Assembly (NCBI GenBank): GCA_947626355.1
Contig: CANQRV010000005.1
Location: 7,573 to 71,572, forward strand
Direction of reading: 5' to 3'
From: an uncultured Muribaculaceae bacterium
GTDB lineage: Bacteria > Bacteroidota > Bacteroidia > Bacteroidales > Muribaculaceae
Length of the DNA stretch: 64,000 nucleotides
Within the stretch, counting starts at the first letter, position 1, and each line of letters opens with the position of its first letter. The notes beneath the pieces are model-generated. The model searched no databases and was not told the origin of the DNA. It was given only the letters and a program-made list of their open reading frames with translations. Shown one piece after another: positions 7,657 to 24,558 of the stretch. The translations under genes and the position numbers were made by a program.

Positions 7657-9966
7657 ATGACGATCATCAGAACCTTAATCTTAATGGCAATGGCCGCCTC
7701 CATGGCGACCGCCACAGCCAAAAGCGACACGGAGAGCGCCAAGGTGCGCGACGTGATACGCAAGGTCAACGACCGCTGGCAGGCCACCCACAGCCCTGAA
7801 GCCACCCCATTCTGGCATGTGGCCGCCTACCACACCGGCAACATGGAGGCCTACCGCCTCACCGGCGATCCCCGCTATCTCGAGTATTCGGAGAAATGGG
7901 CCGAGCACAACAACTGGAGCGGCGCCACCTCCAACGACCGCAAGGAGTGGAAATACGACTACGGCGAAACCCCGCAGCACGTGCTTTTCGGCGACTGGCA
8001 GATCTGCTTCCAGACCTATGCCGACCTCTACAACCTGCTCCCCGACGACAGGCGCGTCAAGCGTGCCCGAGAGGTGATGGAATACGAGATGTCGACGCCT
8101 CAACGCGATTACTGGTGGTGGGCCGACGGCCTCTACATGGTGATGCCCGTGATGACAAAGCTCTACAACATCACCGGCAACACGCAGTATCTCGACAAGC
8201 TGACGGAGTATTTCGAGTATGCCGACAGCATAATGTATGACCCTGAGGAACACCTCTACTACCGCGACGCCAAATACGTCTATCCAAAGCACGAGAGCGT
8301 AAACGGAAAGAAGGACTTCTGGGCGCGTGGCGACGGCTGGGTGCTCGCCGGGCTGGCGAAGGTGCTCGCCGACATGCCCAACGACTACAAGAACCGCCCC
8401 CTCTTCGAGAAGCGATACAGGGAGCTGGCCGACGCGGTGGTGAAGAGCCAGCAGCCTGAGGGATACTGGACACGCTCGATACTCGATCCGGAGCATGCCC
8501 CCGGCCCGGAGACCTCAGGCACGGCATTCTTCACCTACGGCCTTCTGTGGGGCATCAACAACGGCTATCTAAAGGGTGAGAAATACATCAAGGCCGCCGA
8601 GAAGGGCTGGGACTACCTGAGCAAGACTGCACTCCAGAAGAACGGCGACGTTGGCTACGTGCAGCCTATCGGGGAGAAGGCCATTCCGGGACAGGTGGTC
8701 GACCGCAACTCGACCGCCGACTTCGGCACGGGCGCCTTCCTGCTGGCCGCCTGCGAGTATGTGCGCTTCCTTGAGAAGGAGAGCAACGCCGACCGCAAAT
8801 ACTGGACCGACCTGGCCTATCAGATCGCCTACCCGGTGCTATCCAACATGTCGCAGGGAAAGCTGAAGGAGAACATGCTCGTGGAGGTGAGCCCCAACTG
8901 GGACGGCCGCGACAAGGGAGTGACCTACATGGAGACGTTCGGACGCCTGATGGCCGGCATCGCGCCGTGGCTGTCGCTGCCCGACGACGACACCGAGGAG
9001 GGGAAGCTCCGCAAGGAGCTGCGTGAGATGGCGCTCAAGAGCTACGCCAACGCCGTCGACCCCGAGAGCCCCGACTATCTTCTCTGGCGCGGCCACGGCC
9101 AGGCGCTCGTCGACGCCGCATACGTCGCCGAGAGCTTCCTGCGCGCCTACGACGCCCTGTGGGTGCCCCTCGACGAGACCACCAAGAAGAGATATATCGA
9201 GGAGTTCACGCAGCTACGCCGCGTAGACCCTCCCTACACCAACTGGCTCCTCTTCTCCTCCACCATCGAGAGCCTGCTGGCCAAGGTCGGCGCCGAGTGT
9301 GACGAATACCGCGTCAACTCCGCCATACGCAAGACCGAGGAGTGGTACACCGGCGACGGCTGGTATGCCGACGGCCCGGAATTCTCGTTCGACTACTACA
9401 GCAGCTACGTCTTCCATCCGATGTATCTGGAGACGCTCCAGGCGATGAAGGACGCCGGACTCTACACCCGCATCCACTATCCGAAATACTACGACCGCGC
9501 GCTGAAACGCACGCAGAAGTTCAGCATCGTGCTCGAGCGGCTCATCTCCCCGGAAGGCACGTTCCCCGTCTTCGGGCGCTCCATCCCCTACCGCATGGCC
9601 ACGATGCAGCCGCTGGCGCTGATGGCCTGGTATGAGAAGCTGCCCGCCGGGCTCAGCAACGGCCAGGTGCGCAACGCGCTGACCTCTGTGATGCACTCGA
9701 TGTTTGACGGCAAGGAGAACTTCAACGAGAAGGGCTTCCTCACCATCGGCTTCGCAGGGCGCCAGCCCAACATAGCAGACTGGTACACCAACAACGGCAG
9801 CCTCTACATGACCTCCCTGGCCTTCCTGCCGCTCGGTCTGCCGGCCACACATCCGTTCTGGACCGACGCTCCGCTCCCCACCACCAACCAGAAGGCCTGG
9901 AGCGGCAAGCCGTTCCCGAAAGACCATCACTGGCGCGACGGCCAGAAGATCGGCGACCTCTTCTGA
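7657..9966 (+). CDS. GH105 (unsaturated glycuronyl hydrolase) fused to DUF2264 / GH154
   Basis: N-half has WWWADGLYM, FWARGDGWVLAG and ETSGTAFF motifs; C-half has ETFGRLMAGIAPWL, QALVDAAY, NWLLFS, WYADG, GRSIPYR and SLYMTS motifs; one signal peptide. Confidence 0.85.
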   Translation: MTIIRTLILMAMAASMATATAKSDTESAKVRDVIRKVNDRWQATHSPEATPFWHVAAYHTGNMEAYRLTGDPRYLEYSEKWAEHNNWSGATSNDRKEWKYDYGETPQHVLFGDWQICFQTYADLYNLLPDDRRVKRAREVMEYEMSTPQRDYWWWADGLYMVMPVMTKLYNITGNTQYLDKLTEYFEYADSIMYDPEEHLYYRDAKYVYPKHESVNGKKDFWARGDGWVLAGLAKVLADMPNDYKNRPLFEKRYRELADAVVKSQQPEGYWTRSILDPEHAPGPETSGTAFFTYGLLWGINNGYLKGEKYIKAAEKGWDYLSKTALQKNGDVGYVQPIGEKAIPGQVVDRNSTADFGTGAFLLAACEYVRFLEKESNADRKYWTDLAYQIAYPVLSNMSQGKLKENMLVEVSPNWDGRDKGVTYMETFGRLMAGIAPWLSLPDDDTEEGKLRKELREMALKSYANAVDPESPDYLLWRGHGQALVDAAYVAESFLRAYDALWVPLDETTKKRYIEEFTQLRRVDPPYTNWLLFSSTIESLLAKVGAECDEYRVNSAIRKTEEWYTGDGWYADGPEFSFDYYSSYVFHPMYLETLQAMKDAGLYTRIHYPKYYDRALKRTQKFSIVLERLISPEGTFPVFGRSIPYRMATMQPLALMAWYEKLPAGLSNGQVRNALTSVMHSMFDGKENFNEKGFLTIGFAGRQPNIADWYTNNGSLYMTSLAFLPLGLPATHPFWTDAPLPTTNQKAWSGKPFPKDHHWRDGQKIGDLF

Positions 9967-9977
9967 CAGAATGCAAA

Positions 9978-10024
9978 AGATAAAAAATCTCCGGAAGCCT
10001 CGGGCCTCCGGAGATTTTTTATCT
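9978..10024. terminator. Bidirectional intrinsic terminator
   Basis: Perfect 18-bp inverted repeat agataaaaaatctccgga / tccggagattttttatct between convergent genes. Confidence 0.9.
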
Positions 10025-10037
10025 AAACGTGCGCAGA

Positions 10038-11030
10038 TCAGTCGCGTTTCAGACGGGCTGCAAGCAGCGGTACAATCTTGTTGACGTCACCCACGATGCC
10101 GAGATCGGCAACGCTGAAGATGGGGGCGAACTTGTCTTTGTTGACGGCGATGATGAAGTCGCTCTCCTCCATGCCGGCGAGGTGCTGGATGGCACCGGAA
10201 ATGCCGAGTGCGAAATAGAGGTCGGGACGAACGGTCTTACCGGTCTGGCCCACCTGGCGGGCATGCTCGATATAGCCGGCGTCGACCATGGCACGTGAGG
10301 CTGAAACCTCGGCGCCGATCGTCCCGGCGAGGTCGCGGAGCTTGTCGAAGCCAGCGGAGCCTACGCCGCGGCCGCCCGAAACGAGCACCTTGGCCTCGGT
10401 GATGTCGACGAGGTTCTTCGTCTCCTTCACACGCTCCTTCACCCTGACGCGGAACTTGGCGGGGTTGAAGTCGATCTTCACGTTCTCCACCTCACCCTTG
10501 CGCGACTCGTCGGCCGGCGACATGCGCATCACGCCAGGACGCACCGTCGACATCTGGGGGCGATGCTCCTTGCAGACGATGGTGGCCATAAGGTTGCCGC
10601 CGAAGGCGGGACGCGTCATGAGCAGATCGCGGTCGTCGGATATCTCGAGGGCCGTGCAGTCGGCGGTCAGGCCGGTGCCCACGCGGGCGGAGAGCCTCGG
10701 GCCGAGGTCGCGGCCTATAGTCGTGGCGCCGAAGAGCACGATGCTCGGCTTGCGCTCACGGATGATCTGATGGATAGCCTGCGCGTAGGGCTCCGTGGTG
10801 TAGTGCTCAAGCTCGGGAGCGTCTACATTGAGCACCACGTCGGCGCCGTGGGCGATACACTGCTGCGCGGCATCGCCCAGATTGTGGCCGAGAAGCACAG
10901 CCACCACCTTTTCGCCGAGCTTGTCGGCAAGCTCGCGGGCCTTGCCGAGAAGCTCGAAGGCAACGTTTTGCACCTTCCCGTCTCTCTGCTCGGCAAATAC
11001 ATATACGTCTTTATAATCGTTCTTGTCCAT
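10038..11030 (-). CDS. etfA: Electron transfer flavoprotein alpha subunit
   Basis: GLTADCT, RPAFGGN, QVGQTGKTVRP and GISGAIQHLAGM motifs; start at MDKNDY. Confidence 0.95.
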   Translation of the reverse strand: MDKNDYKDVYVFAEQRDGKVQNVAFELLGKARELADKLGEKVVAVLLGHNLGDAAQQCIAHGADVVLNVDAPELEHYTTEPYAQAIHQIIRERKPSIVLFGATTIGRDLGPRLSARVGTGLTADCTALEISDDRDLLMTRPAFGGNLMATIVCKEHRPQMSTVRPGVMRMSPADESRKGEVENVKIDFNPAKFRVRVKERVKETKNLVDITEAKVLVSGGRGVGSAGFDKLRDLAGTIGAEVSASRAMVDAGYIEHARQVGQTGKTVRPDLYFALGISGAIQHLAGMEESDFIIAVNKDKFAPIFSVADLGIVGDVNKIVPLLAARLKRD

Positions 11031-11043
11031 AGCTGTGTCGGCG

Positions 11044-11826
11044 TTAGATGATGAATTTTTCGCGGAGTTTGGCAAGGATGATCTCCACAGCCTCCTCGGG
11101 CTCCACCTCGTAGAGCTGGCCGGGAGCCTTCATGCCCTTGGCAAACGACTTGGCCACCCTTGTGGGGGAGCCGTTGAGACCGATTGTGGCGGGGTCGACC
11201 TCCACGCTGTCGAAGTTCCATACCTCCACGGGGCGGTCGTAGGCCTCCACGATGCCTCTCACCGACATGTAGCGGGGCTTCACGCCGGAAGCGAGGGCGG
11301 TGACGAGGGCCGGAGCGTCGACCTCGATCACCTGATAGCCGTCTTCATCGGCTTTCTTCACGGTGAATGTCTTGTCGCCGTCAAACTCGAGCGACTCGGC
11401 GTATGTCACCTGCGGAAGGTCGAGGTGCTCGGCAATCTGGGGGCCTACCTGCGCTGTGTCGCCGTCGATGGCCTGACGGCCGGTGATCACCAGGTCATAG
11501 TCGAGCTTGCGGAGGGCTGCGGCGATGGTGCGCGACGTGGCGAGGGTGTCGGCGCCGCCAAACTTACGGTCGCTGAGGAGGATGGCGCGGTCGACGCCCA
11601 TGGCGTAGGCCTCGCGGAGGATCTCCTCGGCCTGAGGGGGCCCCATGGTGATGACCGTCACATTGGCGCCGTATTTATCTTTGAGACGCAACGCGAATTC
11701 GAGACCGCCCTTGTCGTCGGGGTTCATGATGCTCGGCACGCCGTCGCGGATCAGAGTGCCTTTCACCGGGTCGAGCTTGATCTCGGTGGTGTCGGGCACC
11801 TGTTTGATACATACCACTATATTCAT
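11044..11826 (-). CDS. etfB: Electron transfer flavoprotein beta subunit
   Basis: VCIKQVPDT, GADTLATS and QAIDGDTAQVGP motifs. Confidence 0.95.
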   Translation of the reverse strand: MNIVVCIKQVPDTTEIKLDPVKGTLIRDGVPSIMNPDDKGGLEFALRLKDKYGANVTVITMGPPQAEEILREAYAMGVDRAILLSDRKFGGADTLATSRTIAAALRKLDYDLVITGRQAIDGDTAQVGPQIAEHLDLPQVTYAESLEFDGDKTFTVKKADEDGYQVIEVDAPALVTALASGVKPRYMSVRGIVEAYDRPVEVWNFDSVEVDPATIGLNGSPTRVAKSFAKGMKAPGQLYEVEPEEAVEIILAKLREKFII

Positions 11827-11847
11827 GATGTGATTGTTTTTGCTTGA

Positions 11848-12987
11848 TTATTTGAATAACTGGCCTGCGATCACCATGCGCTGCACCTCGGAGGTGCCCT
11901 CATAGATCTCTGTGATCTTGGCGTCGCGCATCATTCTCTCGACGGGATACTCGCGGGTGTAGCCGTAGCCGCCGTGATACTGCACGGCCTTTGTGGTCAT
12001 CTCCATGGCTGTCTCGGCGGCGAAGAGCTTGGCCATCGCGGCATCGGCGCTGTAGGGGACCTTGGCGTCTTCCTTCCAGGCGGCGCGGCGCACGAGCAGA
12101 CGGGAGGCCTGGATGCGGGTCTCCATGTCGGCGAGCTGGAACTGCATGTTCTGGAACTTTGCGAGGGCCCTGCCGAACTGCTTGCGCTCCTTGAGGTAGG
12201 AGACAGTCTCGTCCATGGCACCCTGGGCGATGCCGAGGGCCTGGGAGGCGATGCCGATACGGCCGCCGTCGAGGGTCCACATGGCAACCTTGAAGCCTTT
12301 GCCCTCCTGGTCGAGGAGGTTCTCGGCGGGCACGATGCAGTTTTCCATGATGAGCTCGCATGTGGCGGAGCCCCGGATACCCATCTTCTTCTCCTTCTTG
12401 CCGACGGAGAATCCCGGGAAATCCTTCTCCACGATAAAGGCGGAGATGCCCTTTGTGCCCTTGCTCTTGTCGGTCATGGCCATGATGATGTAGACACTGG
12501 CGTAACCGGCGTTGGTGATGAATATCTTGGAACCGTTGAGCACGTAGTGGTCGCCCTCCCTCACGGCAGTGGTCTGCTGTGCGGAGGCGTCGGTGCCGGC
12601 GTTGGGCTCTGTGAGGCCGAAGGCGCCGATCCACTCACCCGAAGCGAGCTTCGGAAGGTATTTCTCTTTCTGCTCCTTTGTGCCGAAATGCATGATCGGG
12701 GCCACGCAGAGCGATGTGTGGGCGGAGAGAATCACGCCGGTTGTGGCACAGACGCGCGAGAGCTCCTCTACAGCCATTGTGTAGAGCACATTATTGCCGC
12801 CGGCTCCCCCGTACTCCACAGGCACGGGAATGCCCATGAGGCCGAGCTTGGCCATCTTCTCCACCGTCTCCATCGGGAAGCGTTCCGTCTCGTCGATCTC
12901 GGCGGCCAGAGGCTTCACCTCCTTGTCGGCGAATTCCCTGATCATCTGAAGAAACAGACGGTCGGTTTTAGTCAGACTGAAATCCAT
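11848..12987 (-). CDS. bcd: Butyryl-CoA dehydrogenase
   Basis: FGLTEPNAGTDA, NGSKIFITN, RKQFG and KITEIYEGTSEVQR motifs; adjacent to etfBA. Confidence 0.93.
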   Translation of the reverse strand: MDFSLTKTDRLFLQMIREFADKEVKPLAAEIDETERFPMETVEKMAKLGLMGIPVPVEYGGAGGNNVLYTMAVEELSRVCATTGVILSAHTSLCVAPIMHFGTKEQKEKYLPKLASGEWIGAFGLTEPNAGTDASAQQTTAVREGDHYVLNGSKIFITNAGYASVYIIMAMTDKSKGTKGISAFIVEKDFPGFSVGKKEKKMGIRGSATCELIMENCIVPAENLLDQEGKGFKVAMWTLDGGRIGIASQALGIAQGAMDETVSYLKERKQFGRALAKFQNMQFQLADMETRIQASRLLVRRAAWKEDAKVPYSADAAMAKLFAAETAMEMTTKAVQYHGGYGYTREYPVERMMRDAKITEIYEGTSEVQRMVIAGQLFK

Positions 12988-13014
12988 TGAAGTGTATTGT
13001 TGTGATTGTTGTTT

Positions 13015-13863
13015 TTAGTATTTATAGAAACCCTCACCGGTCTTTCTGCCGAGAAGATTGGCGCGCACCATCTTGCGGAGCAGGGGGTGGGGACGGTATT
13101 TGTCGTCGCCGAACTCGGAATGGAGCACTTCCATGATGGCGAGGCATACGTCGAGGCCTATGAGGTCGCCGAGAGCGAGAGGCCCCATGGGATGATTGGC
13201 GCCGAGCTTCATGGCGTTGTCGATGTCGTCGCGCGAGGCCACGCCGTCGGCGAGGATGCCCACAGCCTCGTTGATCATCGGGATAAGCACGCGGTTGACT
13301 ACGAAGCCGGGGGCCTCGTTGACCTCCACAGGCACCTTGCCGATGGCGGTGCAGAGGGCCGACACGGCGTCGAAGACCTCATCCGATGTCTTCTGGCCGC
13401 GGATCACCTCCACAAGCTTCATCACGGGAGCGGGGTTGAAGAAGTGCATGCCGATCACCTTATCGGAGCGCTTGGTGGCGGCGCCGATGGCGGTGATGGA
13501 GAGCGACGAGGAGTTGGTGGCGAGCACAGCCTCGGGCTTGCAGAGGCCGTCGAGCATCGCGAAGAGCTCGAGCTTGAGGTCAAGGCTCTCGACAGCAGCC
13601 TCGATCACGAGGTCGGAGTCGGCGATGTCGGCGTAGTCGCAGGTGAGGGTGATGTTGGCGAGCACGGCGTCCATTGCGGCCTGCTCCATCTTGCCCTTCT
13701 CCACGAGGCGTGCGAGCGACTTTGTGATCTTGCCCATGGCCTTGGCGTTGGAGGCCTCGCTGCGGCTCTTCATCGTCACCTTGCGGCCGGCCTGGGCGAA
13801 GGCCTGCACGATGCCGGCACCCATAGTGCCTGTGCCTATCACTGAAATTTTCTCTATATTCAT
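13015..13863 (-). CDS. hbd: 3-hydroxybutyryl-CoA dehydrogenase
   Basis: GTGTMGAG, TNSSSLSIT, GMHFFNP, PGFVVNR and HPMGPLALGDLIGLD motifs. Confidence 0.95.
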   Translation of the reverse strand: MNIEKISVIGTGTMGAGIVQAFAQAGRKVTMKSRSEASNAKAMGKITKSLARLVEKGKMEQAAMDAVLANITLTCDYADIADSDLVIEAAVESLDLKLELFAMLDGLCKPEAVLATNSSSLSITAIGAATKRSDKVIGMHFFNPAPVMKLVEVIRGQKTSDEVFDAVSALCTAIGKVPVEVNEAPGFVVNRVLIPMINEAVGILADGVASRDDIDNAMKLGANHPMGPLALGDLIGLDVCLAIMEVLHSEFGDDKYRPHPLLRKMVRANLLGRKTGEGFYKY

Positions 13864-13871
13864 GAGTCGGA

Positions 13872-14651
13872 TTATTTATTCTTAAACATAGGTTTTCTTT
13901 TGCCGAGGAATGCCTGCATCCCCTCTTTCTGGTCGTCGGTGGCGAAGCAGTCGGAGAATGCACGGTTCTCGAAGGCGAGTGCCCCGGCCTCGTCGAGATC
14001 GTAGGAAGCGTTGATGCATTCCTTTGCCTTGCGCACGGCCACCGGGGCGTTGGCGGCTATGTCGGCGGCGAGCGCCATCACGAAGTCCATCAGCTCCTCG
14101 GGAGGAAGCACATGGTTGACCAGGCCGATCCTCAGGGCCTCGTCAGCCTTGATGACGCGGCCCGAATATATCATCTCCTTGGCGTAGCCCTGCCCCACAA
14201 GCTTCGCGAGGCGGTAGGTGCCGGAGAAGCCGGGCACGATGCCTAGCTTCACCTCGGGCTGTCCGAACTTGGCGTTGGCGGATGCCACGCGGATGTCGCA
14301 GGCCATGGCGAGCTCGCAGCCGCCGCCGAGGGCGAAGCCGTTGACAGCCGCGATCACGGGAATGGGGAGCTCCTCTATCCTGCGGAAGACAGCAGCTCCG
14401 AATCGCCCGAAGTCGAGTCCCTGCTCCGGGCTGAAGGGAGCCATCTGCGAGATGTCGGCGCCGGCCACAAACGACTTGGGGCCGGCCCCGCGCACCACCA
14501 TCACCTTCGCCTCGGCGGGGACAGCGCCAACGAAAGCGTCGAGCTCCTCGAGGATCTCGCGGCTCAGGGCGTTGAGGGTGGCCGGAGCGGAGATCTCGAG
14601 CGTCAGTATGCCTTCGGGCGAGAGCTCATGGTTGAGAAAGCGGTAGTCCAT
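13872..14651 (-). CDS. crt: Crotonase (short-chain enoyl-CoA hydratase)
   Basis: FVAGADI, GFALGGGCELAMACDIR and FGQPEVKLG motifs. Confidence 0.92.
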   Translation of the reverse strand: MDYRFLNHELSPEGILTLEISAPATLNALSREILEELDAFVGAVPAEAKVMVVRGAGPKSFVAGADISQMAPFSPEQGLDFGRFGAAVFRRIEELPIPVIAAVNGFALGGGCELAMACDIRVASANAKFGQPEVKLGIVPGFSGTYRLAKLVGQGYAKEMIYSGRVIKADEALRIGLVNHVLPPEELMDFVMALAADIAANAPVAVRKAKECINASYDLDEAGALAFENRAFSDCFATDDQKEGMQAFLGKRKPMFKNK

Positions 14652-14657
14652 GGCGTG

Positions 14658-15314
14658 TCAGCACATTTTGCCGAGGTTCTCGGCCACCTTGAGCGTAGCG
14701 CCTGTGGCTTCCTTCACCTGGTCGACAGTGAATTCGGGATTGATCTCGGCGAGCACGAGGCCGTCGGGAGTCACCTCGATGACGCCCATCTCCGTGATGA
14801 TGAGGTTGACGGCACCGGCAGCCGTGAGCGGCAGAGTACACTCTTCGAGAATCTTATGGTTGCCCTTGGCGGTGTGTTCCATTGCGAGGATCACGCGCCT
14901 GGCGCCTGCGAGGAGGTCCATAGCTCCGCCCATGCCGGGAGTCTTCTTGCCGGGGATACACCAGTTGGCGAGATTGCCTTTGGCGTCGGTCTGGAGGGCG
15001 CCGAGCACAGTGACGTCGACATGTCCGCCCCTGACATAGCCGAAAGAGGTAGCGCTGTCGAACGTGGCGGCTCCGGGGAGACCGGAAGTGAAGGCACCGC
15101 CTGCGTCGGTGTATTCGGGATCCTCCTCACCCTCGGCGGGACGGGGACCCATGCCGAGAAGTCCGTTCTCGGAGTGGATGGTGACGTGCACTCCCTCCGG
15201 AAGGTAGTTGGGAATCAGCGTCGGGAGGCCGATGCCGAGATTCACCACATAACCGTCGCGCAGCTCCTTGGCGGCACGGCGGGCGATAGTCTCTCTGATC
15301 TGCTGTTTGTCCAT
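14658..15314 (-). CDS. atoA: Butyrate:acetoacetate CoA-transferase, beta subunit
   Basis: NLGIGLPT, HSENG (catalytic Glu), RGGHVD, GNLANW and GMGGAMDL motifs. Confidence 0.92.
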   Translation of the reverse strand: MDKQQIRETIARRAAKELRDGYVVNLGIGLPTLIPNYLPEGVHVTIHSENGLLGMGPRPAEGEEDPEYTDAGGAFTSGLPGAATFDSATSFGYVRGGHVDVTVLGALQTDAKGNLANWCIPGKKTPGMGGAMDLLAGARRVILAMEHTAKGNHKILEECTLPLTAAGAVNLIITEMGVIEVTPDGLVLAEINPEFTVDQVKEATGATLKVAENLGKMC

Positions 15315-15347
15315 TATGTTTTTCAATTAGTTATTAGTTTTCAGTCA

Positions 15348-16139
15348 TCATTTGGAATGCTGGCGACGGTCGAACTCCTGCGCGATGAAGGAGGCGACGT
15401 CGTCGGCGTATGTGTTCATGCCGAAACCGGCGTCGTAGCCGAGCTCCTTTGCCAGCTCGTGGGAGATGCGCGCGCCGCCGCAGACGATAATCATCTTGTC
15501 GCGGAGGCCCTCAGCCTCAAGAAGCTCCACGAGCTCCACCATGTTGTGGATGTGTACGTCTTTCTGGGTGACTGTCTGCGACACGAGGAGGGCATCGGCG
15601 CCGAGCTCCACTGCCCTGGCGATAAACTCGTCGTTGGGCACCTGGCTGCCGAGGTTGTGGGCCTCGAACATCTCGTATCGCTCGAGTCCGTAGTGGCCGG
15701 CGAAGCCCTTCATGTTCATGATGGCGTCGATGCCTACGGTGTGGGCGTCGGTGCCGGTGCTGGCGCCGACCACCACCAGCGGGCGTCCGATGTGCTCGCG
15801 GATGAAGTCGTCGGTCTGCTGCATATCCCATTTGGTGCCCTCCACCTTGGGCACGTGGATGCCGGTGTAGTCGACGGTGTGGGTGCAGCTGCCGTAGCAG
15901 TTGAAGAAAGTGAAGCCCTCGGTGAGCTCCTTATGGTAGACGATGAGTGGATTCTCGAATCCCATCTTGCGCATCAGCTGCTTGGCCGCTTCCACGGCCT
16001 CGTCGCCTGCGGGCACAGGGAGGGTGAAGCTGACCTGGGTCTTGCCGTCGTTCATGGTGTCGCCGTAGGGCTTCACGGCTTTCAGGTCGAGCGTCTTGTC
16101 GAAATCTTTTTTCTCGGTTGAATACAGGCCTTCGCTCAT
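15348..16139 (-). CDS. kamE: Lysine 5,6-aminomutase beta subunit (B12-binding)
   Basis: PYGDTMNDGKTQVSFTLP; DAHTVGIDAIMNMKG (B12-ligating His, PLP Lys); SQTVTQK. Confidence 0.97.
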   Translation of the reverse strand: MSEGLYSTEKKDFDKTLDLKAVKPYGDTMNDGKTQVSFTLPVPAGDEAVEAAKQLMRKMGFENPLIVYHKELTEGFTFFNCYGSCTHTVDYTGIHVPKVEGTKWDMQQTDDFIREHIGRPLVVVGASTGTDAHTVGIDAIMNMKGFAGHYGLERYEMFEAHNLGSQVPNDEFIARAVELGADALLVSQTVTQKDVHIHNMVELVELLEAEGLRDKMIIVCGGARISHELAKELGYDAGFGMNTYADDVASFIAQEFDRRQHSK

Positions 16140-17698
16140 TTCTCTTCTCTGTTAAGCATTATTTCAATAAATGGATTGTAATAGCCTTCGGTCTTGGGAG
16201 CCACTCCCTCGAGGCCCTTTCCGCCGTTCTTCGGGCGCTTCACATCGGCGAAGATACCCTTCTCGAGAGCGGAGAAGAGCCCTTCGCTCTCCATCTGCTC
16301 GAGCAGGGATGTGGCCTTGGAGAGCACCTCGCGGGCGCGTGTCTGGATGATGCCGTCTTTCTTGAACTCCATCTCGTCGCCGATGCTCTTCATGTTGCCG
16401 AAGATATACTTGGCGTTCTCGATCGAGAGGTAGCGGTCGCTCATGAAGGGAGTGTGGATGGCCTCCGTGGGCATGCCGAGGAGCTGGATGCCCTGATGGG
16501 TCCAGATGCCGATCATATTGAAGAGGGCGTCCTGGATATGGCCGCGGAATATGTTTCCGGTCATGAACTTCGTGGGGGGCATGTATTTGAGGGTGGCCTT
16601 GGGGAAGATCTCGCGGATCATCTGGGCCTGGGCGAGCTCGAGGAGGAAGCCGTTCTCAAGCGAGGGATCCATCTCGAAGGCGTGTCCGAGACCCATCTGC
16701 TCCTCGGGGAGGCCTGCGAGAAGGGCGAGCTGCTCGTTGATGAGGTCGGAGGCGAGCACGGTATGTGCCTCCTCTACGGCGTCGGCCGTAGTGAGGTAGT
16801 TGTCTTCACCGGTGTTGATGATCACCCCTGCGAATCCGTTGATGACGCGGCTCATGAACTGGTCGACAAGGGTGCGCTGCATGTTGATGTCGCGGAAGAG
16901 GATACCGTAGAGGGCGTCGTTGAGCATGACGTCGAGACCCTCGAGGGCACCCATGGCTGCGATTTCCGGCATGCAGAGGCCGGAGCAGTAGTTGCAGAGG
17001 CGGATATAGCGTCCCACCTCCTCGCCTACCTCGTCGAGGGCCTTGCGCATGATGCGGAAGTTCTCCTGAGTGGCGAAAGTGCCGCCGAATCCCTCTGTGG
17101 TGGCGCCGTAGGGGACATAATCGAGGAGGCTCTGACCGGTGGTGCGGATCACGGCGATGATGTCGGCGCCCTGACGGGCAGCGGCCTGCGCCTGCACCAC
17201 GTCCTCGTAGATGTTGCCGGTGGCGACGATGACGTAGAGGTAGGGCTTGGAGCCCTCGCCTATCGTGGCGAGATAATGCTCTTTCTTGCTTCGGCGCTCG
17301 CTGATGCGCTTCACGGAAGCCTCCACATAGGGACGCAGGGCTTCGGCCACCTCTTCGGAGGAATGGCCCTCAAGGCGCGTGAGGTCGAGCTCGCCGGCTG
17401 CCACCTTCTCGGCGATGGCCTGCGGGTCGAGGCCGGTGGCTATGATGGCGTTGGCAATGAAATAGAGTATGCCGCGTCCGAGGAGGCCGTTCTCCTTGAT
17501 GTGGTTGACGAGCACATTGGGCAGTGGCACTGTGTTGTCGTCGACGCCGTCGACGCCTAAGAGGCGGCAGAGCGTGCGCTCCACAGCCACCGTGGTGTAT
17601 TGGTCGACAAACGACTGCACGTCGAGAGCGATCTTGCGGGCGACGTCTTTCGCGTGGGCGACTTTATTGAAATCGAGGCCTAATTTGCTTTCTTGCAT
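16136..17698 (-). CDS. kamD: Lysine 5,6-aminomutase alpha subunit
   Basis: TTVAVERTLCRLLG, IVATGNIYEDVVQA, NYCSGLCMPEIA and YMPPTKFMTG motifs. Confidence 0.97.
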   Translation of the reverse strand: MQESKLGLDFNKVAHAKDVARKIALDVQSFVDQYTTVAVERTLCRLLGVDGVDDNTVPLPNVLVNHIKENGLLGRGILYFIANAIIATGLDPQAIAEKVAAGELDLTRLEGHSSEEVAEALRPYVEASVKRISERRSKKEHYLATIGEGSKPYLYVIVATGNIYEDVVQAQAAARQGADIIAVIRTTGQSLLDYVPYGATTEGFGGTFATQENFRIMRKALDEVGEEVGRYIRLCNYCSGLCMPEIAAMGALEGLDVMLNDALYGILFRDINMQRTLVDQFMSRVINGFAGVIINTGEDNYLTTADAVEEAHTVLASDLINEQLALLAGLPEEQMGLGHAFEMDPSLENGFLLELAQAQMIREIFPKATLKYMPPTKFMTGNIFRGHIQDALFNMIGIWTHQGIQLLGMPTEAIHTPFMSDRYLSIENAKYIFGNMKSIGDEMEFKKDGIIQTRAREVLSKATSLLEQMESEGLFSALEKGIFADVKRPKNGGKGLEGVAPKTEGYYNPFIEIMLNREEK

Positions 17699-17705
17699 TT
17701 CTATA

Positions 17706-19103
17706 TTAAAGTTGTGATTGTTGCAGAGTTAAAAAACGGGCCGCCGAGTCGATGAGCGTCGGGTCGATGCCGAGCATGGCGGCGATGCGCAGCGCCTCGC
17801 GTGGCGCCGCTGCTGCGGAGTCTTCCTCCAGCGAGTAGTCCATGAGGAGGGGGATGTCGGCTATCGAGCCGATGCTGCCGTCGGCGGCATTGGAGAGGCC
17901 CCTGACCCTGAGGCGGCGCGAGGCATGGAGGCCGCTGTAGTGGGTGGTGACCACCGTGATGCTCGGCAGGGCGCCGAAACAGCTGATGATGGCGCCGGCG
18001 ATGGCGCGACCTTCCTCGGGATTGGTGGTGCGTCCCGGCTCGTCGATGAGCACGAGGAGGCGTCGGCCGGAGGACGCCTCCTTCAGGGCGCTGTCGATAC
18101 TCAGCATCTCGGCGGCAAACGACGATAGGCCGGTGAGCTCCGACTGGTCGTCGCCGAGACACACCCTGACCTCCTCCACCACTGTCACCGATGCCCGGGA
18201 GGCCGGCACGTAGAGGCCGAGCTGGGCGAGGGTCTGGGCCAGGGCGACGGTCTTCAGGATGACGCTCTTGCCACCCATGTTTGCGCCGGTGATCACGCAG
18301 ACGCCTTCGCCCACGGAGATGTCGATGGGCTGGAAGTCGCGTTTCCTCCTGCGCAAAACCTCCCTCACCTGCGGATTGAACAGGGCTGTATAACGTGTGT
18401 CGCCCTCATCGGCTATGCACGGGCGGCAGAGCCCCTGGGCGACGGCAAGCTTCGCGTGGGCGATGAGGAAATCAAGCTCTCCGACAGCGGCGAGAGCCTC
18501 GATGGCCACGCGAGCCAGCGGGCGCAGCCGGGCCGCGAGAGCGCATCTCACCTCGTCTTCCACGGCAGTGGCCTCCGCAAAGAGGGCGGCGCCCTCCTCG
18601 CTTCCGGCATCGCATGCGTTGATGCGGCGGCGCAGAGGGGCAAGACGCGGATCGTAGCTGTCGTAGATGAAGAAATGTGGGATTCGGGCTCCGTCCGGGT
18701 CGAGTATGGCCACCGTCGCGGTCATATCGGGTATGGCTACGGCATCGAGATCCATCTCGGCGCAGTAGCGGCTGATGTCGCCACACTGGAGGGCGAAGGT
18801 CTTGAGCTCGAAGAGCTCCGTGTCGTCGGTCACCTGCCCGGCGGCGAGGCGGCGGAGCGTGCCGCTGATGTCGTTGACACACATCAGCACGTGAAGCAGC
18901 CGGGCGAGCGGCCTGGCTGCAGCCGGATCCGACACGGCCACGACAGCCTTCCCCGCCTTGTCGAGACGCTCGGCGATGACACCGGTGTCGGCCGTCATCT
19001 CAAGGGCGTTGAGATGGGCGCGTCCTGGCGCCGACATGATCTCGAGACTGTCGGCTATATGGCGGAGGCCGGGGATTGAGGCAGTGAGCCGGGTGAATGT
19101 CAT
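17706..19103 (-). CDS. kamC: MutS-like ATPase, lysine 5,6-aminomutase reactivase component
   Basis: MutS domain V only (ITGANMGGKS, LSSFAAEM, LIDEPGRTTNPEEG, TTHY); lies directly upstream of kamD. Confidence 0.85.
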   Translation of the reverse strand: MTFTRLTASIPGLRHIADSLEIMSAPGRAHLNALEMTADTGVIAERLDKAGKAVVAVSDPAAARPLARLLHVLMCVNDISGTLRRLAAGQVTDDTELFELKTFALQCGDISRYCAEMDLDAVAIPDMTATVAILDPDGARIPHFFIYDSYDPRLAPLRRRINACDAGSEEGAALFAEATAVEDEVRCALAARLRPLARVAIEALAAVGELDFLIAHAKLAVAQGLCRPCIADEGDTRYTALFNPQVREVLRRRKRDFQPIDISVGEGVCVITGANMGGKSVILKTVALAQTLAQLGLYVPASRASVTVVEEVRVCLGDDQSELTGLSSFAAEMLSIDSALKEASSGRRLLVLIDEPGRTTNPEEGRAIAGAIISCFGALPSITVVTTHYSGLHASRRLRVRGLSNAADGSIGSIADIPLLMDYSLEEDSAAAAPREALRIAAMLGIDPTLIDSAARFLTLQQSQL

Positions 19104-20134
19104 GGCAGATTCCGGTTAAGTCTGACATCGATGGTGTCGATGCCTGTTTTTTCTTTTATTGAGTCGCAGAGTCGGCGCGAGTCGACTCGGTAGCCTGCGG
19201 GAGATGTCGGATTTACGCAGATGGCGAGCACACGGCACGGGCGTGCCACGAAGACGGCTCCTCCCTTGGAAGTGAAGGCCGTGAACGCCTCGCGCGATGC
19301 GAACATACAGGAGAAGTCGCGCATCGCGAGAGCCATGCCGTCGGTCTGCGGGAGCTGCCGGAGTGTGGCGAGAAGCCTGTCGGTGACGGCGCCGGCCACA
19401 TATAGCAGCGCTGTGTCGGTCGGAATGTCGGCCGCGGCGGAGCCGAGCGCGATTGCCGACGAAAGGCCAAGGTCATGAATGCCGCCATGGGCATCGACTG
19501 CCACCACTCCCCTCTCCACATCCTCGAGCCTTCGGGCCATCTCCGGCGGGAGCGCCGGAAGGCGCATCACCTCGCATACGAATGCCGTGCGGCGGGTGAT
19601 CTCGGGGATCGAGGGGGCGATTGCGGCGCCGGTGGCCAGCACGAGGGCGTCGGTGACGGCCGGCGAGGCGGAGCTCATGCGTGAGAGCGCGCCGTCTACG
19701 AGGGTCACGTCGGGACTGTAGGCCCCGAGGTCGGAGATGAGTCTGCGGAGCGACGCCGTGTCGGGCGGCCCGGCGAGGATCACCTTGCCGTGGGTTCTCA
19801 CCCTGGCGGTGACGAGGCGCCCGAGAGCTGTGGCCCGCGTTCCTATGCCGAGCACCTTCGAAGTGACGCCCCGGGAGCGGTAGAAACTCTCCGAGGTGAC
19901 GAATACCGTCTCCTCGAAGAGTGTTATCTCAGGCTTCCGGGTATGGCTGACGGCGTCGGTCTGCTCGCCGTCGACACCTATGGAGGTGACGGCGGGAGTC
20001 AGGCCGCGGTCGTGGAGACCCCGCAGAATGTAGTTGAGACATTCCGTCTTGCCCGCGTTCTTGGCGAGGCCGACGATCGCCACGCTGTCATAGCTGGCGA
20101 TTCTGTCGATGAGAGAAGCCTCCGGCTCAGCCAT
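19100..20134 (-). CDS. kamB: Putative lysine 5,6-aminomutase reactivase subunit
   Basis: GLAKNAGKT P-loop, TSIGVDGE and VDGALSRMSSASP motifs; position between kamA and kamC. Confidence 0.8.
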   Translation of the reverse strand: MAEPEASLIDRIASYDSVAIVGLAKNAGKTECLNYILRGLHDRGLTPAVTSIGVDGEQTDAVSHTRKPEITLFEETVFVTSESFYRSRGVTSKVLGIGTRATALGRLVTARVRTHGKVILAGPPDTASLRRLISDLGAYSPDVTLVDGALSRMSSASPAVTDALVLATGAAIAPSIPEITRRTAFVCEVMRLPALPPEMARRLEDVERGVVAVDAHGGIHDLGLSSAIALGSAAADIPTDTALLYVAGAVTDRLLATLRQLPQTDGMALAMRDFSCMFASREAFTAFTSKGGAVFVARPCRVLAICVNPTSPAGYRVDSRRLCDSIKEKTGIDTIDVRLNRNLP

Positions 20135-20145
20135 ATCGGCGTGGT

Positions 20146-21402
20146 TCAGTGTTTGTTACGCTCGTGGCGGGCAAGCTTGCTGGGCTCGAGGGAGAGCTGC
20201 TCGCCGTTGAGGAGGCTTGCGATGCCCTCCTTGTGGAGCTGCTTGCGGCGCGCCGCCTCGCATTCTGGGCAGTGACATTCCTCCTTGTAGTCGGTGGGCT
20301 CCGTGTAGGTGGTGATCACACCCTCATAGTTGCGGAGCACTACCCTTGTGGGCGACTGGGAGATGACGTAGTTGGGCATCACCGGAGTCTTGCCGCCGCC
20401 ACCGGGGGCGTCGACCACGAAAGTGGGCACGGCGTAGCCGGAAGTATGTCCGCGGAGGTTCTCCATGATCTCGATGCCTTTCGACACCGGGGTGCGGAAA
20501 TGCTCGATACCCGTCGAGAGGTCGCACTGATATATGTAGTACGGTCTCACGCGAATCTTCACGAGCTCCCTCACGAGGCGCTTCATCACATTGGTGCAGT
20601 CGTTGACCCCTCTGAGGAGCACGCTCTGGTTGCCGAGGGGCACGCCGGCGTTGGCGAGGCGCGCGCATGCGAGAGTCGACTCGGGAGTGATCTCGTTGGG
20701 ATGGTTGAAGTGGGTGTTGAGCCAGATGGGATGATACTTCGAGAGCATTGCCACGAGCTCGGGGGTGATGCGCTGCGGGAGCACCACCGGAGTGCGCGAG
20801 CCGATGCGGATGATCTCCACATGGGGAATCTCGCGGAGCTTCCTGATGATGTACTCGAGGCGCTCGTCGCTCACGAGCAGGGCGTCGCCGCCTGAGAGGA
20901 GCACGTCTCTCACCTGGGGAGTGCGGGCGATATACGCGATGGCATTGTCGATACGCTCGAGAGGCGAGGCAGCGTCGCGCTGGCCGGCAAATCTGCGGCG
21001 TGTGCAATGGCGGCAGTACATGGAGCACTGGTCGGTGATGAGGAAGAGCACCCTGTCGGGATACCTGTGGGTAAGGCCCGGCACCGGGGAGTCGCTGTCC
21101 TCGTGAAGCGGGTCGTCGAGGTCGGCGTCAGCCTTATGGAGCTCGGCGGCGGTGGGGATCGCCTGCTTGCGTATGGGGTCGTGGGGATCTGACGGATCGA
21201 TGAGGCTGAGATAGTAGGGGGTGATGGCCATGCGCAGATGCTGGAGCGCATTGCGCACGCCTTCCTCCTCCTCGGCCGTCAGCGGGAAGTATTTCTTCAG
21301 CTGATCGACCGTCTCGATGCGGTTTCTCACCTGCCACTTCCAGTCGTTCCACTGCTCGTCGGTGACGTCGGGGAAAAGCTGGTGTCTTCTGTCGGTTGCC
21401 AT
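20146..21402 (-). CDS. kamA: Lysine 2,3-aminomutase (radical SAM, PLP)
   Basis: GLTHRYPDR, CSMYCRHCTRRR, LSGGD, APGGGGKTP (PLP Lys); C-terminal CHCPEC zinc site. Confidence 0.97.
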   Translation of the reverse strand: MATDRRHQLFPDVTDEQWNDWKWQVRNRIETVDQLKKYFPLTAEEEEGVRNALQHLRMAITPYYLSLIDPSDPHDPIRKQAIPTAAELHKADADLDDPLHEDSDSPVPGLTHRYPDRVLFLITDQCSMYCRHCTRRRFAGQRDAASPLERIDNAIAYIARTPQVRDVLLSGGDALLVSDERLEYIIRKLREIPHVEIIRIGSRTPVVLPQRITPELVAMLSKYHPIWLNTHFNHPNEITPESTLACARLANAGVPLGNQSVLLRGVNDCTNVMKRLVRELVKIRVRPYYIYQCDLSTGIEHFRTPVSKGIEIMENLRGHTSGYAVPTFVVDAPGGGGKTPVMPNYVISQSPTRVVLRNYEGVITTYTEPTDYKEECHCPECEAARRKQLHKEGIASLLNGEQLSLEPSKLARHERNKH

Positions 21403-21414
21403 GTCGGGACTGAC

Positions 21415-22458
21415 TTAAGCGTAAAGGTCGGTGAAGATCTTGCGGAGTGCCTCGTTCTCACGGAGCTCCTGGAGAGTGATCTCGGCATGGCCCTTTGTGT
21501 AGCCGTTGCCCACGATCATCGTCACGTCGGAGCCTACGCCCTCTGCGCCGAGAGCGGCCTTCGTGAAGCTTGTGGCCATTGAGAAGAAGTAGACCACGCC
21601 GGTGTCTTTCGTGCAGAGGATGGAGGTCATCTCCGTGTCGGGGATGTTGACGTTGTTGATTGTGACGTCAGCCATGTGGCCGTTGGTGAGCTCTGCGATC
21701 TTGTCCATCACGGGCACGGGCTTTGTGGCGTCGGCGGAGAAGACATAGTCGCAGAAACCAAGATTCTGGAGACGCTCGGTGCTCTTCTGGCTGTGGCAGA
21801 GGCCGATCACCTTGCCTGTGACGCCTGCGCGCTTCTTGGCCTCGTAGCAGCAGAGCATACCCGACTTGCCGCCGGCTCCGATGATGAGCACTGTGTCGCC
21901 GGGCTTCACGAGCTTGGCGGTCTGTGCGGGAGCGCCTGCCACGTCGAGGGCGGAGAGGGCGAGGTTCTCGGGGAGATCGGAGGGAATCTTGGCGTAGATG
22001 CCGCTCTCGAAGAGGATGGCCTTGCCGTCGATGTCCACCTGGTCGATCTCGGGACGGATATCCTTTATCCTGTCGATGCGGAGGGGAGTGAGCGAGAGCG
22101 ATACAAGTGTCGCGATCTTGTCGCCTTCCTTAAGATCGATCTTACCCTTGAGAGCGTCGCCGATTTTCTCTACTGTGCCGAGGAGCATACCGCCGGAGCC
22201 GGTCACCGGGTTGCGGTGCTTGCCCTGCTTTGCCACGATGTCGAGCATGATGCGCGCGATCTCCTCCTTGTCGCCCTTTGCCTGCTCCTCGATCTGGGTG
22301 AAGGAGGCTGAGTCGATGTTGAGGGTCTGCACGTCGATGAGGATCTCGTTGTCGTAGATCTCGTCCATGTTGTTGTCGATCTTGTCGGCCGGCTGGGGAA
22401 GCACTCCCTTGGGCTCTATTACTCTGTGTGTTCCGTATTTATTACCTTTCTTCTGCAT
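21415..22458 (-). CDS. kdd: L-erythro-3,5-diaminohexanoate dehydrogenase
   Basis: KYGTHRVIEP, NIDSASF, NPVTGSGGMLLG, LDVAGAP and FFSMATSF motifs; start at MQKKG. Confidence 0.95.
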   Translation of the reverse strand: MQKKGNKYGTHRVIEPKGVLPQPADKIDNNMDEIYDNEILIDVQTLNIDSASFTQIEEQAKGDKEEIARIMLDIVAKQGKHRNPVTGSGGMLLGTVEKIGDALKGKIDLKEGDKIATLVSLSLTPLRIDRIKDIRPEIDQVDIDGKAILFESGIYAKIPSDLPENLALSALDVAGAPAQTAKLVKPGDTVLIIGAGGKSGMLCCYEAKKRAGVTGKVIGLCHSQKSTERLQNLGFCDYVFSADATKPVPVMDKIAELTNGHMADVTINNVNIPDTEMTSILCTKDTGVVYFFSMATSFTKAALGAEGVGSDVTMIVGNGYTKGHAEITLQELRENEALRKIFTDLYA

Positions 22459-22500
22459 GATATTAAATTTATTTTTTTGTATTTTCGATTTAAGGATGTG

Positions 22501-22525
22501 GCTCCCCCTCTTCATGGAGGGGAGC
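22501..22525. other. Intra-operon GC hairpin between kce and kdd (possible mRNA-stabilising element)
   Basis: gctcccc...ggggagc stem with no U tract on the minus strand. Confidence 0.3.
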
Positions 22526-22537
22526 CGGGATGCCGCG

Positions 22538-23365
22538 TTATCTGCGGGGAGCGAGGCCGAGTATCTCGCGGGCCTCGGCTGGAGTGGCGATCTCGCGGCC
22601 GAGCTCCCGGGCTATTCGCACCACCTTCTCCACGAGCTCGCCGTTTGACTTTGCGAGCACCCCTTTGGAGAGATAGAGGTTGTCTTCAAAACCCACCCTG
22701 ACGTTGCCGCCCATGGCTATTGCTGCGGCGGCCATCGGGAAGGCGTTGCGGCCAACGCCGGTCACGGTCCATGTGGAGCCGGCGGGTATGGCGTTGACCA
22801 GCCAGCACAGGTTGGGCACCGTGGCTGTGGTGCAGCCGGGCACGCCGAGCACGAAATTGAACTGCATGGGGGCACCGGGCACCTGTCCCTTGCGGGCCAT
22901 GTTGAGCACGGTGTCGAGGTGACCCATCTCGAAGCACTCATATTCGGGCTTGATGCCGCGCTCCATCATGCGCTTGCCGAAGTCGCGCATCATGGGCATC
23001 GTGTTCTCAAACACGTCGTCGCCGAAATTGCATGTGCCGCAGTCGAGAGTGGCCATCTCGGGGTCGAGCTCCGTGGGCTGGAGGCGCTCCTCGGCGGTCA
23101 TGCCTACGGCGCCGCCGGTGGAGGGGATGAGAATCACGTCTGGACACACCTTTAGGATGGCGTCGATACACTCCTTGAACCGGGCCTTGCTCTGGGTGGG
23201 AGTGCCGTCGTCTTCCCTCACATGGATATGCACGATGGCGGCTCCGGCGTCGACGGCCGACTTGGCCTCACGCACGATTTCCTCCACAGTGTAGGGCACA
23301 GCGGGGTTCTGCTCCTTGGTGACCTCCGCGCCGCAGATGGCGGCTGTGATGATAAGCTTCTCCAT
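22538..23365 (-). CDS. kce: 3-keto-5-aminohexanoate cleavage enzyme
   Basis: LIITAAICGAE, HIHVR (Zn), STGG, TLDCGTCNFG, PEYECF and RVGFEDN motifs. Confidence 0.96.
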   Translation of the reverse strand: MEKLIITAAICGAEVTKEQNPAVPYTVEEIVREAKSAVDAGAAIVHIHVREDDGTPTQSKARFKECIDAILKVCPDVILIPSTGGAVGMTAEERLQPTELDPEMATLDCGTCNFGDDVFENTMPMMRDFGKRMMERGIKPEYECFEMGHLDTVLNMARKGQVPGAPMQFNFVLGVPGCTTATVPNLCWLVNAIPAGSTWTVTGVGRNAFPMAAAAIAMGGNVRVGFEDNLYLSKGVLAKSNGELVEKVVRIARELGREIATPAEAREILGLAPRR

Positions 23366-23370
23366 ATCCG

Positions 23371-23757
23371 TCAGTTCTTACGCTGGTCTTCTTTCTTCAC
23401 GACACACGTGCCGCTGGCGCGGCACACCACCACAGGCTCGGGAAGCACGTCGGCTGCGGAAGCGGAGATGTCGGGGCGCGGGGCAATCACCTTGCGGGCC
23501 TCGAACACCATCTTGCGCGAGGTGTTGCCCACCTTCACGATCTCGCCGACAGCCTCGATATAGTCGCCGGCATATACGGGAGCGAGAAATTCTATATTGT
23601 CGTAGGCGCAGAAGAGACCTTCGTCGCCGTCGTGCATGATGAGCAGCTCTGTCGCCACGTCGCCGAAGAGGTGCACCATGTGGGCTCCGTCAACAAGATT
23701 ACCGCCGTAGTGTGCGTCTTTTGCGCTCATGCGCACGCGAATCATCGATTTTTCCAT
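23371..23757 (-). CDS. kal: 3-aminobutyryl-CoA ammonia-lyase (hotdog fold)
   Basis: [34 protein letters not shown] and [10 protein letters not shown] motifs. Confidence 0.95.
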
Positions 23758-23812
23758 TTGTATGCAATTATTATAATGAGCAGCCGGCCGGCAGAGGCCG
23801 GCGCGCGGAGTG

Positions 23813-24460
23813 TCAATATTCAAGGATATAGTCTACAAGCACGCCGGGAGTGTGGACGTTCTCGGGAAGGATCTCTCCGACGGGCACATGCTCCTTGGCC
23901 TCTACGATCACGAGGTCGGCGGCTGTGGCCATCAGGGGGTTGAAGTTCATGGAAGTGCCTCTGTAGACGAGGTTGCCCGCCTCATCGGCCACGCTGGCGC
24001 CGATCAGGGCCACATCGGCGCGGAGGGGAAGCTCAAGCAGATAGTCCTTGCCGCCGATGTTCACCACCTGCTTTCCTTCTGCCACGACTGTGCCGAGGCC
24101 GGTGGGCGTGAGGAAGCCGCCGAGACCGCAGCCGCCGGCCCTTACACGCTCGGCGAGCGTGCCCTGCGGCGAGAACTCGATCTCAAGCTCTCCGCTGTTC
24201 ATTTTCTCGGAGGCCTGCGGCGTTGCGCCGATGTATGACGCGATGAGTTTCTTTATCTGTCCGTTGACGAGCAGCTGGCCGATACCCTTGTCGGGATACG
24301 CGGTGTCGTTGCATATTACAGTCAGATCCTTGACCCCTGACTTCGCGAGGGCGTCGATGATGGAGTTGGGAGTGCCGTTGGCAAGGAAGCCGCCGACCAT
24401 GATGGTCATGCCGTCCTTGATTTTCCCCACAGCCTCCTGCAATGAAATTTTCTGGCTCAT
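23813..24460 (-). CDS. atoD: Butyrate:acetoacetate CoA-transferase, alpha subunit
   Basis: [28 protein letters not shown] and [10 protein letters not shown] motifs. Confidence 0.92.
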
Positions 24461-24526: not shown

Positions 24527-24558
24527 CAAAATTAGTGAAAATCCCTGAATTGCACAAA
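24527..24558 (-). promoter_or_regulatory. Housekeeping promoter of the lysine fermentation operon
   Basis: Minus-strand TTTG (24558-24555), 20-nt spacer, TAATTTTG (24534-24527). Confidence 0.8.

Follow-up and report, generated by a model that had tools for sequence, protein, structure and literature searches.

The 3-keto-5-aminohexanoate route of lysine fermentation follows the same chemistry in Clostridium sticklandii and Fusobacterium nucleatum, where a thiolase cleaves acetoacetyl-CoA and ATP is gained from acetyl-phosphate. Here we describe a 15-gene operon for this route in a 64-kb window (the whole stretch of DNA that was analysed, C5:7573-71572) of a 3.09-Mb assembly (148 contigs, 99.89% complete, G+C 55.9%) whose host belongs, by two housekeeping markers, to the Muribaculaceae, abundant gut bacteria usually seen as sugar degraders that produce acetate, succinate and propionate. 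We consider it likely, at a probability of roughly 0.7, that the genes make up a functional, single-transcript lysine operon in a glycan degrader, which would lead to two molecules of butyrate and would have been acquired early, separately from other carriers in the family, with later losses.

A closely similar arrangement is known from Porphyromonas, where Vital et al. 2014 (PMC3994512) described genes of the acetyl-CoA pathway inside the lysine operon, with the thiolase missing and acetoacetyl-CoA entering at the second step. The loci of P. gingivalis, P. endodontalis and P. somerae encode the same enzymes as the window, with atoD first, atoA after kamE, and kamBC; they likewise carry hbd, crt and bcd-etf beside the lysine genes without a thiolase, and they form the sister clade of the host genus's operons in a tree of six proteins. 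An earlier, sequence-only reading of this DNA had placed crt-hbd after etf in Porphyromonas, and three loci agree (L043, L057 and L062, with crt-hbd after etfA), whereas in the window these two genes lie between atoA and bcd. Protein identity to the window is 54-89%, and the hosts differ too: Porphyromonas is asaccharolytic, while the window's host is a glycan degrader with methylmalonyl-CoA mutase.

All 15 genes stand in the same order in Alistipes sp. CAG:831 and many uncultured Bacteroidales metagenome-assembled genomes (MAGs; e.g. L005, L008, L009, L011, L013, L014, L030, L039, L047 and L070), but these represent another family or operon lineage and fall in other clades of the tree, with 55-86% identity to the window for most proteins and 36-42% for KamB and KamC. 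Lysine fermentation in Intestinimonas AF211 (PMC4697335), C. sticklandii and F. nucleatum runs through the same reactions as far as crotonyl-CoA and shares the butyryl-CoA:acetoacetate CoA-transferase step. All three cleave acetoacetyl-CoA with a thiolase and gain ATP from acetyl-phosphate; their gene order differs, and their KamD is about 70% identical to the window's. A thiolase variant occurs in two species of the host genus (G358 and G271), with the same backbone and operon clade and enzymes 77-94% identical, in which a single thiolase gene takes the place of crt-hbd; it predicts acetate plus butyrate. A GenBank KamD from a 'Prevotella sp.' record (CDE09470.1) is 87% identical to that of the window.

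Gene content and boundaries of the operon

The operon occupies positions 10038-24460 of the minus strand and consists of 15 uninterrupted, co-oriented open reading frames (ORFs) without internal stops, in the order atoD-kal-kce-kdd-kamA-kamB-kamC-kamD-kamE-atoA-crt-hbd-bcd-etfB-etfA. Gene identities come from an NCBIfam scan, with equivalog models and curated cut-offs for the lysine-specific proteins. The features, from promoter to terminator, are these (aa, amino acids; nt, nucleotides):

24527..24558, minus strand: Bacteroidetes-type promoter upstream of atoD, read by eye; -33 TTTG (24558-24555), 20-nt spacer, -7 TAATTTTG (24534-24527); atoD ATG at 24460
23813..24460, minus strand: atoD, CoA-transferase subunit A, 215 aa; TIGR02429, 239 bits (cut-off 128.5); PRK09920, 294 bits
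23371..23745, minus strand: kal, 3-aminobutyryl-CoA ammonia-lyase, 124 aa; NF052388, 196.5 bits (cut-off 160); longest ORF from 23823
22538..23365, minus strand: kce; NF052387, 435 bits (cut-off 382)
21415..22458, minus strand: kdd, L-erythro-3,5-diaminohexanoate dehydrogenase, 347 aa; NF052381, 280 bits (cut-off 200); longest ORF from 22515
20146..21402, minus strand: kamA, lysine 2,3-aminomutase, 418 aa, with the radical S-adenosylmethionine (SAM) motif C126SMYCRHC (CxxxCxxC); TIGR03820, 637 bits (cut-off 525)
19100..20134, minus strand: kamB, lysine 5,6-aminomutase reactivase subunit, 344 aa; NF052386, 302 bits (cut-off 210)
17706..19103, minus strand: kamC, reactivase ATPase of the MutS domain V type, 465 aa, Walker A G273ANMGGKS; NF052383, 407 bits (cut-off 300)
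16136..17698, minus strand: kamD, lysine 5,6-aminomutase alpha subunit, 520 aa; NF052384, 932 bits (cut-off 600)
15348..16139, minus strand: kamE, lysine 5,6-aminomutase beta subunit, 263 aa, B12-binding motif D131AHTVG (DxHxxG); NF052385, 406 bits (cut-off 280)
14658..15314, minus strand: atoA, CoA-transferase subunit B, 218 aa; subfamily model TIGR02428, 301 bits (cut-off 243.55); longest ORF from 15326
13872..14651, minus strand: crt, short-chain enoyl-CoA hydratase, 259 aa; PRK05809, 326 bits, below the cut-off of 394; assigned from position and homologues
13015..13863, minus strand: hbd, 3-hydroxybutyryl-CoA dehydrogenase, 282 aa; PRK05808, 440 bits (cut-off 408)
11848..12987, minus strand: bcd, butyryl-CoA dehydrogenase, 379 aa; top match the acryloyl-CoA reductase AcrC family, 539 bits, below the cut-off of 640; acyl-CoA dehydrogenase domains; function from context
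11044..11826, minus strand: etfB, electron-transfer flavoprotein beta subunit, 260 aa; NF040731, 354 bits, below the cut-off of 445; PF01012
10038..11030, minus strand: etfA, electron-transfer flavoprotein alpha subunit, 330 aa; AcrA-type electron-transfer flavoprotein, 385 bits; PF01012 and PF00766; longest ORF from 11075
9979..10023, minus strand: intrinsic terminator, a 20-bp stem (8 G-C pairs) followed by a T run, starting 14 bases after the etfA stop codon

By family assignment, enzymes for every step of 3-keto-5-aminohexanoate lysine fermentation are encoded, together with crt-hbd-bcd-etfBA. For kal (23745), kdd (22458), atoA (15314) and etfA (11030), gene calls on near-identical contigs and inspection of ATG codons point to a probable start downstream of that of the longest ORF. 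With these starts, ATG begins all 15 genes, and true overlaps are found at kamB/kamC and kamD/kamE only, each of 4 nt; the remaining gaps measure 5-79 nt.

Upstream of atoD stands the TTTG / TAATTTTG pair, in the -33/-7 arrangement of Bacteroidetes (consensus in Bacteroides promoters, TTTG / TAnnTTTG); a sigma-70 promoter scan returned 4 sites vs 4.0 expected, i.e. no excess. One promoter and one terminator enclose the cluster, in favour of a single transcript. The terminator also has an A run upstream of its stem and may act in both directions, between etfA and a convergent glycoside hydrolase (GH) gene. The sequence-only reading had listed the same 15 intact, co-oriented genes in this order, which the ORFs and model matches confirm, and the promoter and terminal hairpin it reported are likewise present. 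Its description of the junctions as tight or overlapping holds for the short gaps and the two 4-nt overlaps; the other overlaps were an artefact of choosing the longest ORF.

Predicted route and fate of acetoacetyl-CoA

For the steps from lysine to crotonyl-CoA and for the CoA transfer, we infer the route by combining the family assignments with the pathway as it is known. KamA (radical SAM/pyridoxal phosphate) would convert L-lysine to beta-lysine, and KamDE (adenosylcobalamin/pyridoxal phosphate), its activity sustained by the KamBC reactivase, would carry this on to 3,5-diaminohexanoate, which Kdd would oxidize to 3-keto-5-aminohexanoate. Kce would then cleave 3-keto-5-aminohexanoate, using acetyl-CoA, to acetoacetate and 3-aminobutyryl-CoA; from the latter Kal would liberate ammonia and leave crotonyl-CoA, the substrate from which Bcd-EtfAB would form butyryl-CoA. 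In the final step AtoAD would transfer CoA from butyryl-CoA to acetoacetate, yielding butyrate and acetoacetyl-CoA.

No thiolase was detected in the 99.9%-complete genome: the best TIGR01930 match reaches 27 bits vs a cut-off of 240, and a tblastn search of the genome with the thiolase from a same-genus operon gave no match. With the genome lacking a thiolase, acetoacetyl-CoA could not be split into two acetyl-CoA, and its only outlet would be Hbd, Crt and, once more, Bcd-Etf, from which another butyryl-CoA would result. Overall, the predicted balance is

lysine + acetyl-CoA (or acetate) + 4 [H] -> 2 butyrate + 2 NH3

so that the pathway would act as an electron and acetyl sink beside sugar fermentation, as would suit a host with spare acetyl-CoA and reductant; energy conservation would rely on ferredoxin reduced by Bcd-Etf and on the Rnf complex instead of acetyl-phosphate. 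RnfC is encoded in the genome (498 bits). Both subunits of methylmalonyl-CoA mutase are encoded there as well (G000:C9:45517-48686), from which it follows that the host already uses adenosylcobalamin; at the level of gene content, the genome shows the usual succinate-propionate route coexisting with the putative butyrate route.

Two other species of the host genus resolve acetoacetyl-CoA differently. In G358 (L104, 13230-14453) and G271 (L105, 13392-14504) one thiolase gene sits in the crt-hbd position, giving atoA-thl-bcd, an arrangement that also occurs in Ancylomarina, Labilibaculum, Rikenellaceae MAGs and other Bacteroidia; judged from gene content, both solutions coexist in one genus and one operon clade. 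We tentatively suggest, as an idea that we hold to be possible though not the more probable outcome, that in the Muribaculaceae the atoA-bcd slot may be an evolutionary switch, in which crt-hbd would make the pathway a two-butyrate redox and acetyl sink coupled to the fermentation of glycans and conserving energy through Bcd/Etf-Rnf, and a thiolase would make it an ATP-yielding route to butyrate plus acetate. The species, co-encoding the succinate-to-propionate route and a butyrate route as few gut bacteria do, would then be an uncounted source of butyrate made by co-fermenting protein and sugar. The swap offers a natural comparison for testing how product ratios depend on what becomes of acetoacetyl-CoA.

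Host, distribution and origin

The 93-kb contig that carries the operon also holds leuS, at a distance of 16 kb. The top match of its product is 97% identical, followed by a plateau at 81-83%, and the named matches, at 81-82%, are mostly 'Muribaculaceae bacterium' (5 of the 7 named top matches); for RpoB (C47), all 8 of 8 organism-named top matches are Muribaculaceae, including the cultured Lepagella muris at 91% identity. On these two markers the host family is the Muribaculaceae. Among the products of the window's other genes are GH30, a GH88/105-DUF2264 fusion, two GH3 enzymes, a TonB-dependent receptor and PorZ; the LeuS and RpoB neighbours together with these GH genes make the description of the host as glycan-degrading and Muribaculaceae-like, already given in the sequence-only reading, the right one.

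Using the KamD model as the marker, we obtained the following distribution:

Order Bacteroidales: KamD in 49/401 genomes and 29/237 genera, from about two dozen family codes
Host family (f1), even sample: KamD in 4/201 genomes
Host genus (g1, more than 150 species): KamD in 7/151 species
Second large genus of the same family (g17): KamD in 65/101 species and in 35/51 high-quality genomes

The second genus, which may be Sodaliphilus/CAG-1031, includes the rumen MAGs RUG330 and ERR1278105_bin.98, labelled 'uncultured Prevotellaceae' at NCBI. The pathway is uncommon in the host genus, yet it is not foreign to the Muribaculaceae overall. The count of 7 in 151 species speaks against the host being of a lineage where the pathway is the norm; membership of a lineage already known for it had been named in the sequence-only reading as a way for the claim to fail. 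The other genus carries KamD in 65 of 101 species. Three genomes of that genus (G763, G821 and G838) each have two full-length KamD matches on different contigs, which could reflect duplication, strain mixture or contamination. In the host genus, kamD of G271 (L105; G271:C33:18207-19764) is split over two frames, covering residues 1-167 and 169-510; the split reflects either a faulty assembly or a frameshift that has made kamD a pseudogene as the lineage loses the pathway.

The six-protein tree combines Kce, Kdd, KamA, KamD, KamE and Bcd in one concatenated alignment of 2216 columns. All operons of the host genus form one clade (support of 100 in the Shimodaira-Hasegawa-like approximate likelihood-ratio test, SH-aLRT), sister to Porphyromonas, and the operons of g17 form a separate, strongly supported clade with rumen Bacteroidales MAGs. 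On this phylogeny, the operons of the two Muribaculaceae groups arose separately. A single origin of the operon in the family was tried as a constraint and rejected by the approximately unbiased (AU) test (log-likelihood difference 572, p = 2e-9), the group having been defined after the tree was made.

Within the host genus, KamD and LeuS of the other carriers compare with those of the window as follows:

G331: KamD 99.4%, LeuS 97% identical
G266: KamD 93%, LeuS 83% identical
G271: KamD 89.6%, LeuS 80% identical
G354, G358 and G355: KamD 87-89%, LeuS 75-76% identical

The divergence of KamD thus parallels that of LeuS, and the internal topology of the clade agrees, its ordering being that of the LeuS identities in this comparison of gene tree with species marker. 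Because KamD and LeuS diverge in step and the codon usage is host-like, the pattern fits a single acquisition long ago, close to the base of the host genus, after which most lineages lost the operon; the old acquisition proposed in the sequence-only reading gains support from the same two observations. At the window's own site, gain and loss look alike, since the GH88/105-DUF2264 orthologues in the non-carriers G111, G330 and G344 share no neighbours with the window; in this genus, neighbourhood synteny at such a distance is gone even for genes outside the operon.

Composition places the operon within its genome. Its G+C is 61.6% and its G+C at third codon positions (GC3) 0.81, inside the distribution of a genome with a median 5-kb G+C of 57.7% and a median GC3 of 0.78. 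The distance of its codon usage from the genome is 0.068 vs a null of 0.056 +/- 0.034, a distance from the genome average that 24% of random gene sets of equal size reach; the codon style had been called host-like from the DNA alone, and these values bear that out. Against two species of the same genus, the ratio of nonsynonymous to synonymous substitution rates (dN/dS) is 0.04-0.19 for the enzymes, indicating purifying selection, and 0.15-0.19 for crt and hbd. The reactivase subunits evolve fast, with dN/dS of 0.30-0.34 for kamB and 0.40-0.46 for kamC; KamB and KamC are 38-60% identical where the other operon proteins are 80-93% identical.

Alternative explanations and significance

The operon might have come from another organism, such as Alistipes, Odoribacter or Porphyromonas, through mis-assembly, mis-binning or very recent transfer, and the six-protein tree could be read in this way, given that the operon clade of the host genus is sister to Porphyromonas and not to the family's other carrier genus. 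We give this hardly any credence. Independent assemblies contain at least 24 contigs with a KamD 99.6% identical to that of the window; six of these contigs, displayed in detail, represent six samples, and wherever a contig extends past the operon its junctions are those of the window, with DUF6249, a major facilitator superfamily transporter and a Na/Ca exchanger on one side and the GH88/105-DUF2264 and GH30 genes on the other. The recurrence of the same flanks in so many independent contigs argues that the operon is not chimeric, and leuS, whose product has its named nearest homologues in the Muribaculaceae, stands on the same 93-kb contig; a binning chimera, which had been named as a way for the claim to fail, is thus not what we find. 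Codon usage and GC3 are like those of the genome, and the nearest named homologues outside the genus are only 77-84% identical.

Two further readings concern function. The enzymes could follow the classical stoichiometry, lysine -> butyrate + acetate + 2 NH3, with thiolase cleavage, ATP via acetyl-phosphate and crt and hbd incidental; Clostridium and Fusobacterium are the textbook cases of this route, which Intestinimonas (PMC4697335) also follows, and the same-genus species G358 and G271 have a thiolase inside the operon. We regard it as improbable for the window's host, in whose genome a thiolase is undetectable and where crt and hbd fill the slot that holds the thiolase in the sister species and evolve under a dN/dS of 0.15-0.19. 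Somewhat less improbable, but still unlikely in our view, is that the operon is a minor trait, rarely expressed, serving mainly to scavenge ammonia from lysine, or on its way to being lost, and that the species is not a relevant butyrate producer: it is lost from about 95% of the species of the genus, kamD is split in G271, and no dedicated transporter or regulator was found. Against this stand the strong purifying selection on all 15 genes and the 95-100% identity of the operon proteins across independent samples of the species. The reading that we prefer, a functional two-butyrate lysine operon acquired early, has several observations to contend with in turn. Bcd, Crt, EtfA and EtfB fall below the cut-offs of their best models, so that their substrates are assigned from context; Rfam gave no match to a riboswitch or other RNA control in the 64-kb window, and no lysine transporter or regulator was identified. 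The genome does encode a homologue of the butyryl-CoA:acetate CoA-transferase family of P. gingivalis PGN_1341 (796 bits, cut-off 740), but that family also matches B. thetaiotaomicron and is therefore not specific for butyryl-CoA. Finally, each of the other carrier species in the genus has its operon between different flanks, which makes transfer within the genus inseparable from vertical descent with rearrangement.

The enzymes, the operon and its thiolase-less variant are already known, and no new mechanism is involved. Full-text literature searches turned up no report of the lysine pathway in the Muribaculaceae, although absence from such searches is not proof. Borton et al. 2017 mined the lysine pathway in Alistipes only and treated S24-7 as propionate producers, and two recent livestock studies list Sodaliphilus (Muribaculaceae) among amino-acid degraders or butyrate-related protein sources, neither of them identifying the operon. 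Inventories of butyrate producers built on Firmicutes together with Alistipes, Odoribacter and Porphyromonas would miss the Muribaculaceae, in which a full lysine route is suggested for about 5% of the species of one large genus and about two thirds of those of another. This bears on the taxon to which metagenomic 'lysine pathway' reads are assigned and on the predicted formation of butyrate and ammonia from dietary or host protein, both of which we infer from sequence for this species. According to Kircher et al. 2022 (PMC9704393), propionate and butyrate routes are combined in just about 2-3% of gut bacteria, so that the host genome would hold a rare combination.

Three minor observations concern neighbouring lineages and genes. 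Candidatus Merdivivens pullistercoris (L038; Muribaculaceae at NCBI) has an operon running atoD...atoA-bcd-etfBA, with no adjoining crt-hbd detected, and it groups with Alistipes sp. CAG:831 in the tree, which hints at yet another origin. The operon of 'Candidatus Egerieisoma sp.' (L023; Clostridiaceae, Bacillota at NCBI) is near-identical to that of the Bacteroidales MAG RGIG9123 and falls inside the Bacteroidales clades; its taxonomy entry looks misplaced. As for the GH88/105-DUF2264 fusion beside the operon (window 7657-9966), G266, G279 and G247 match its N-terminal GH88/105 half only, so that the fusion is not universal in the genus, while in G111, G330 and G344 it is present at full length with 75-80% identity.

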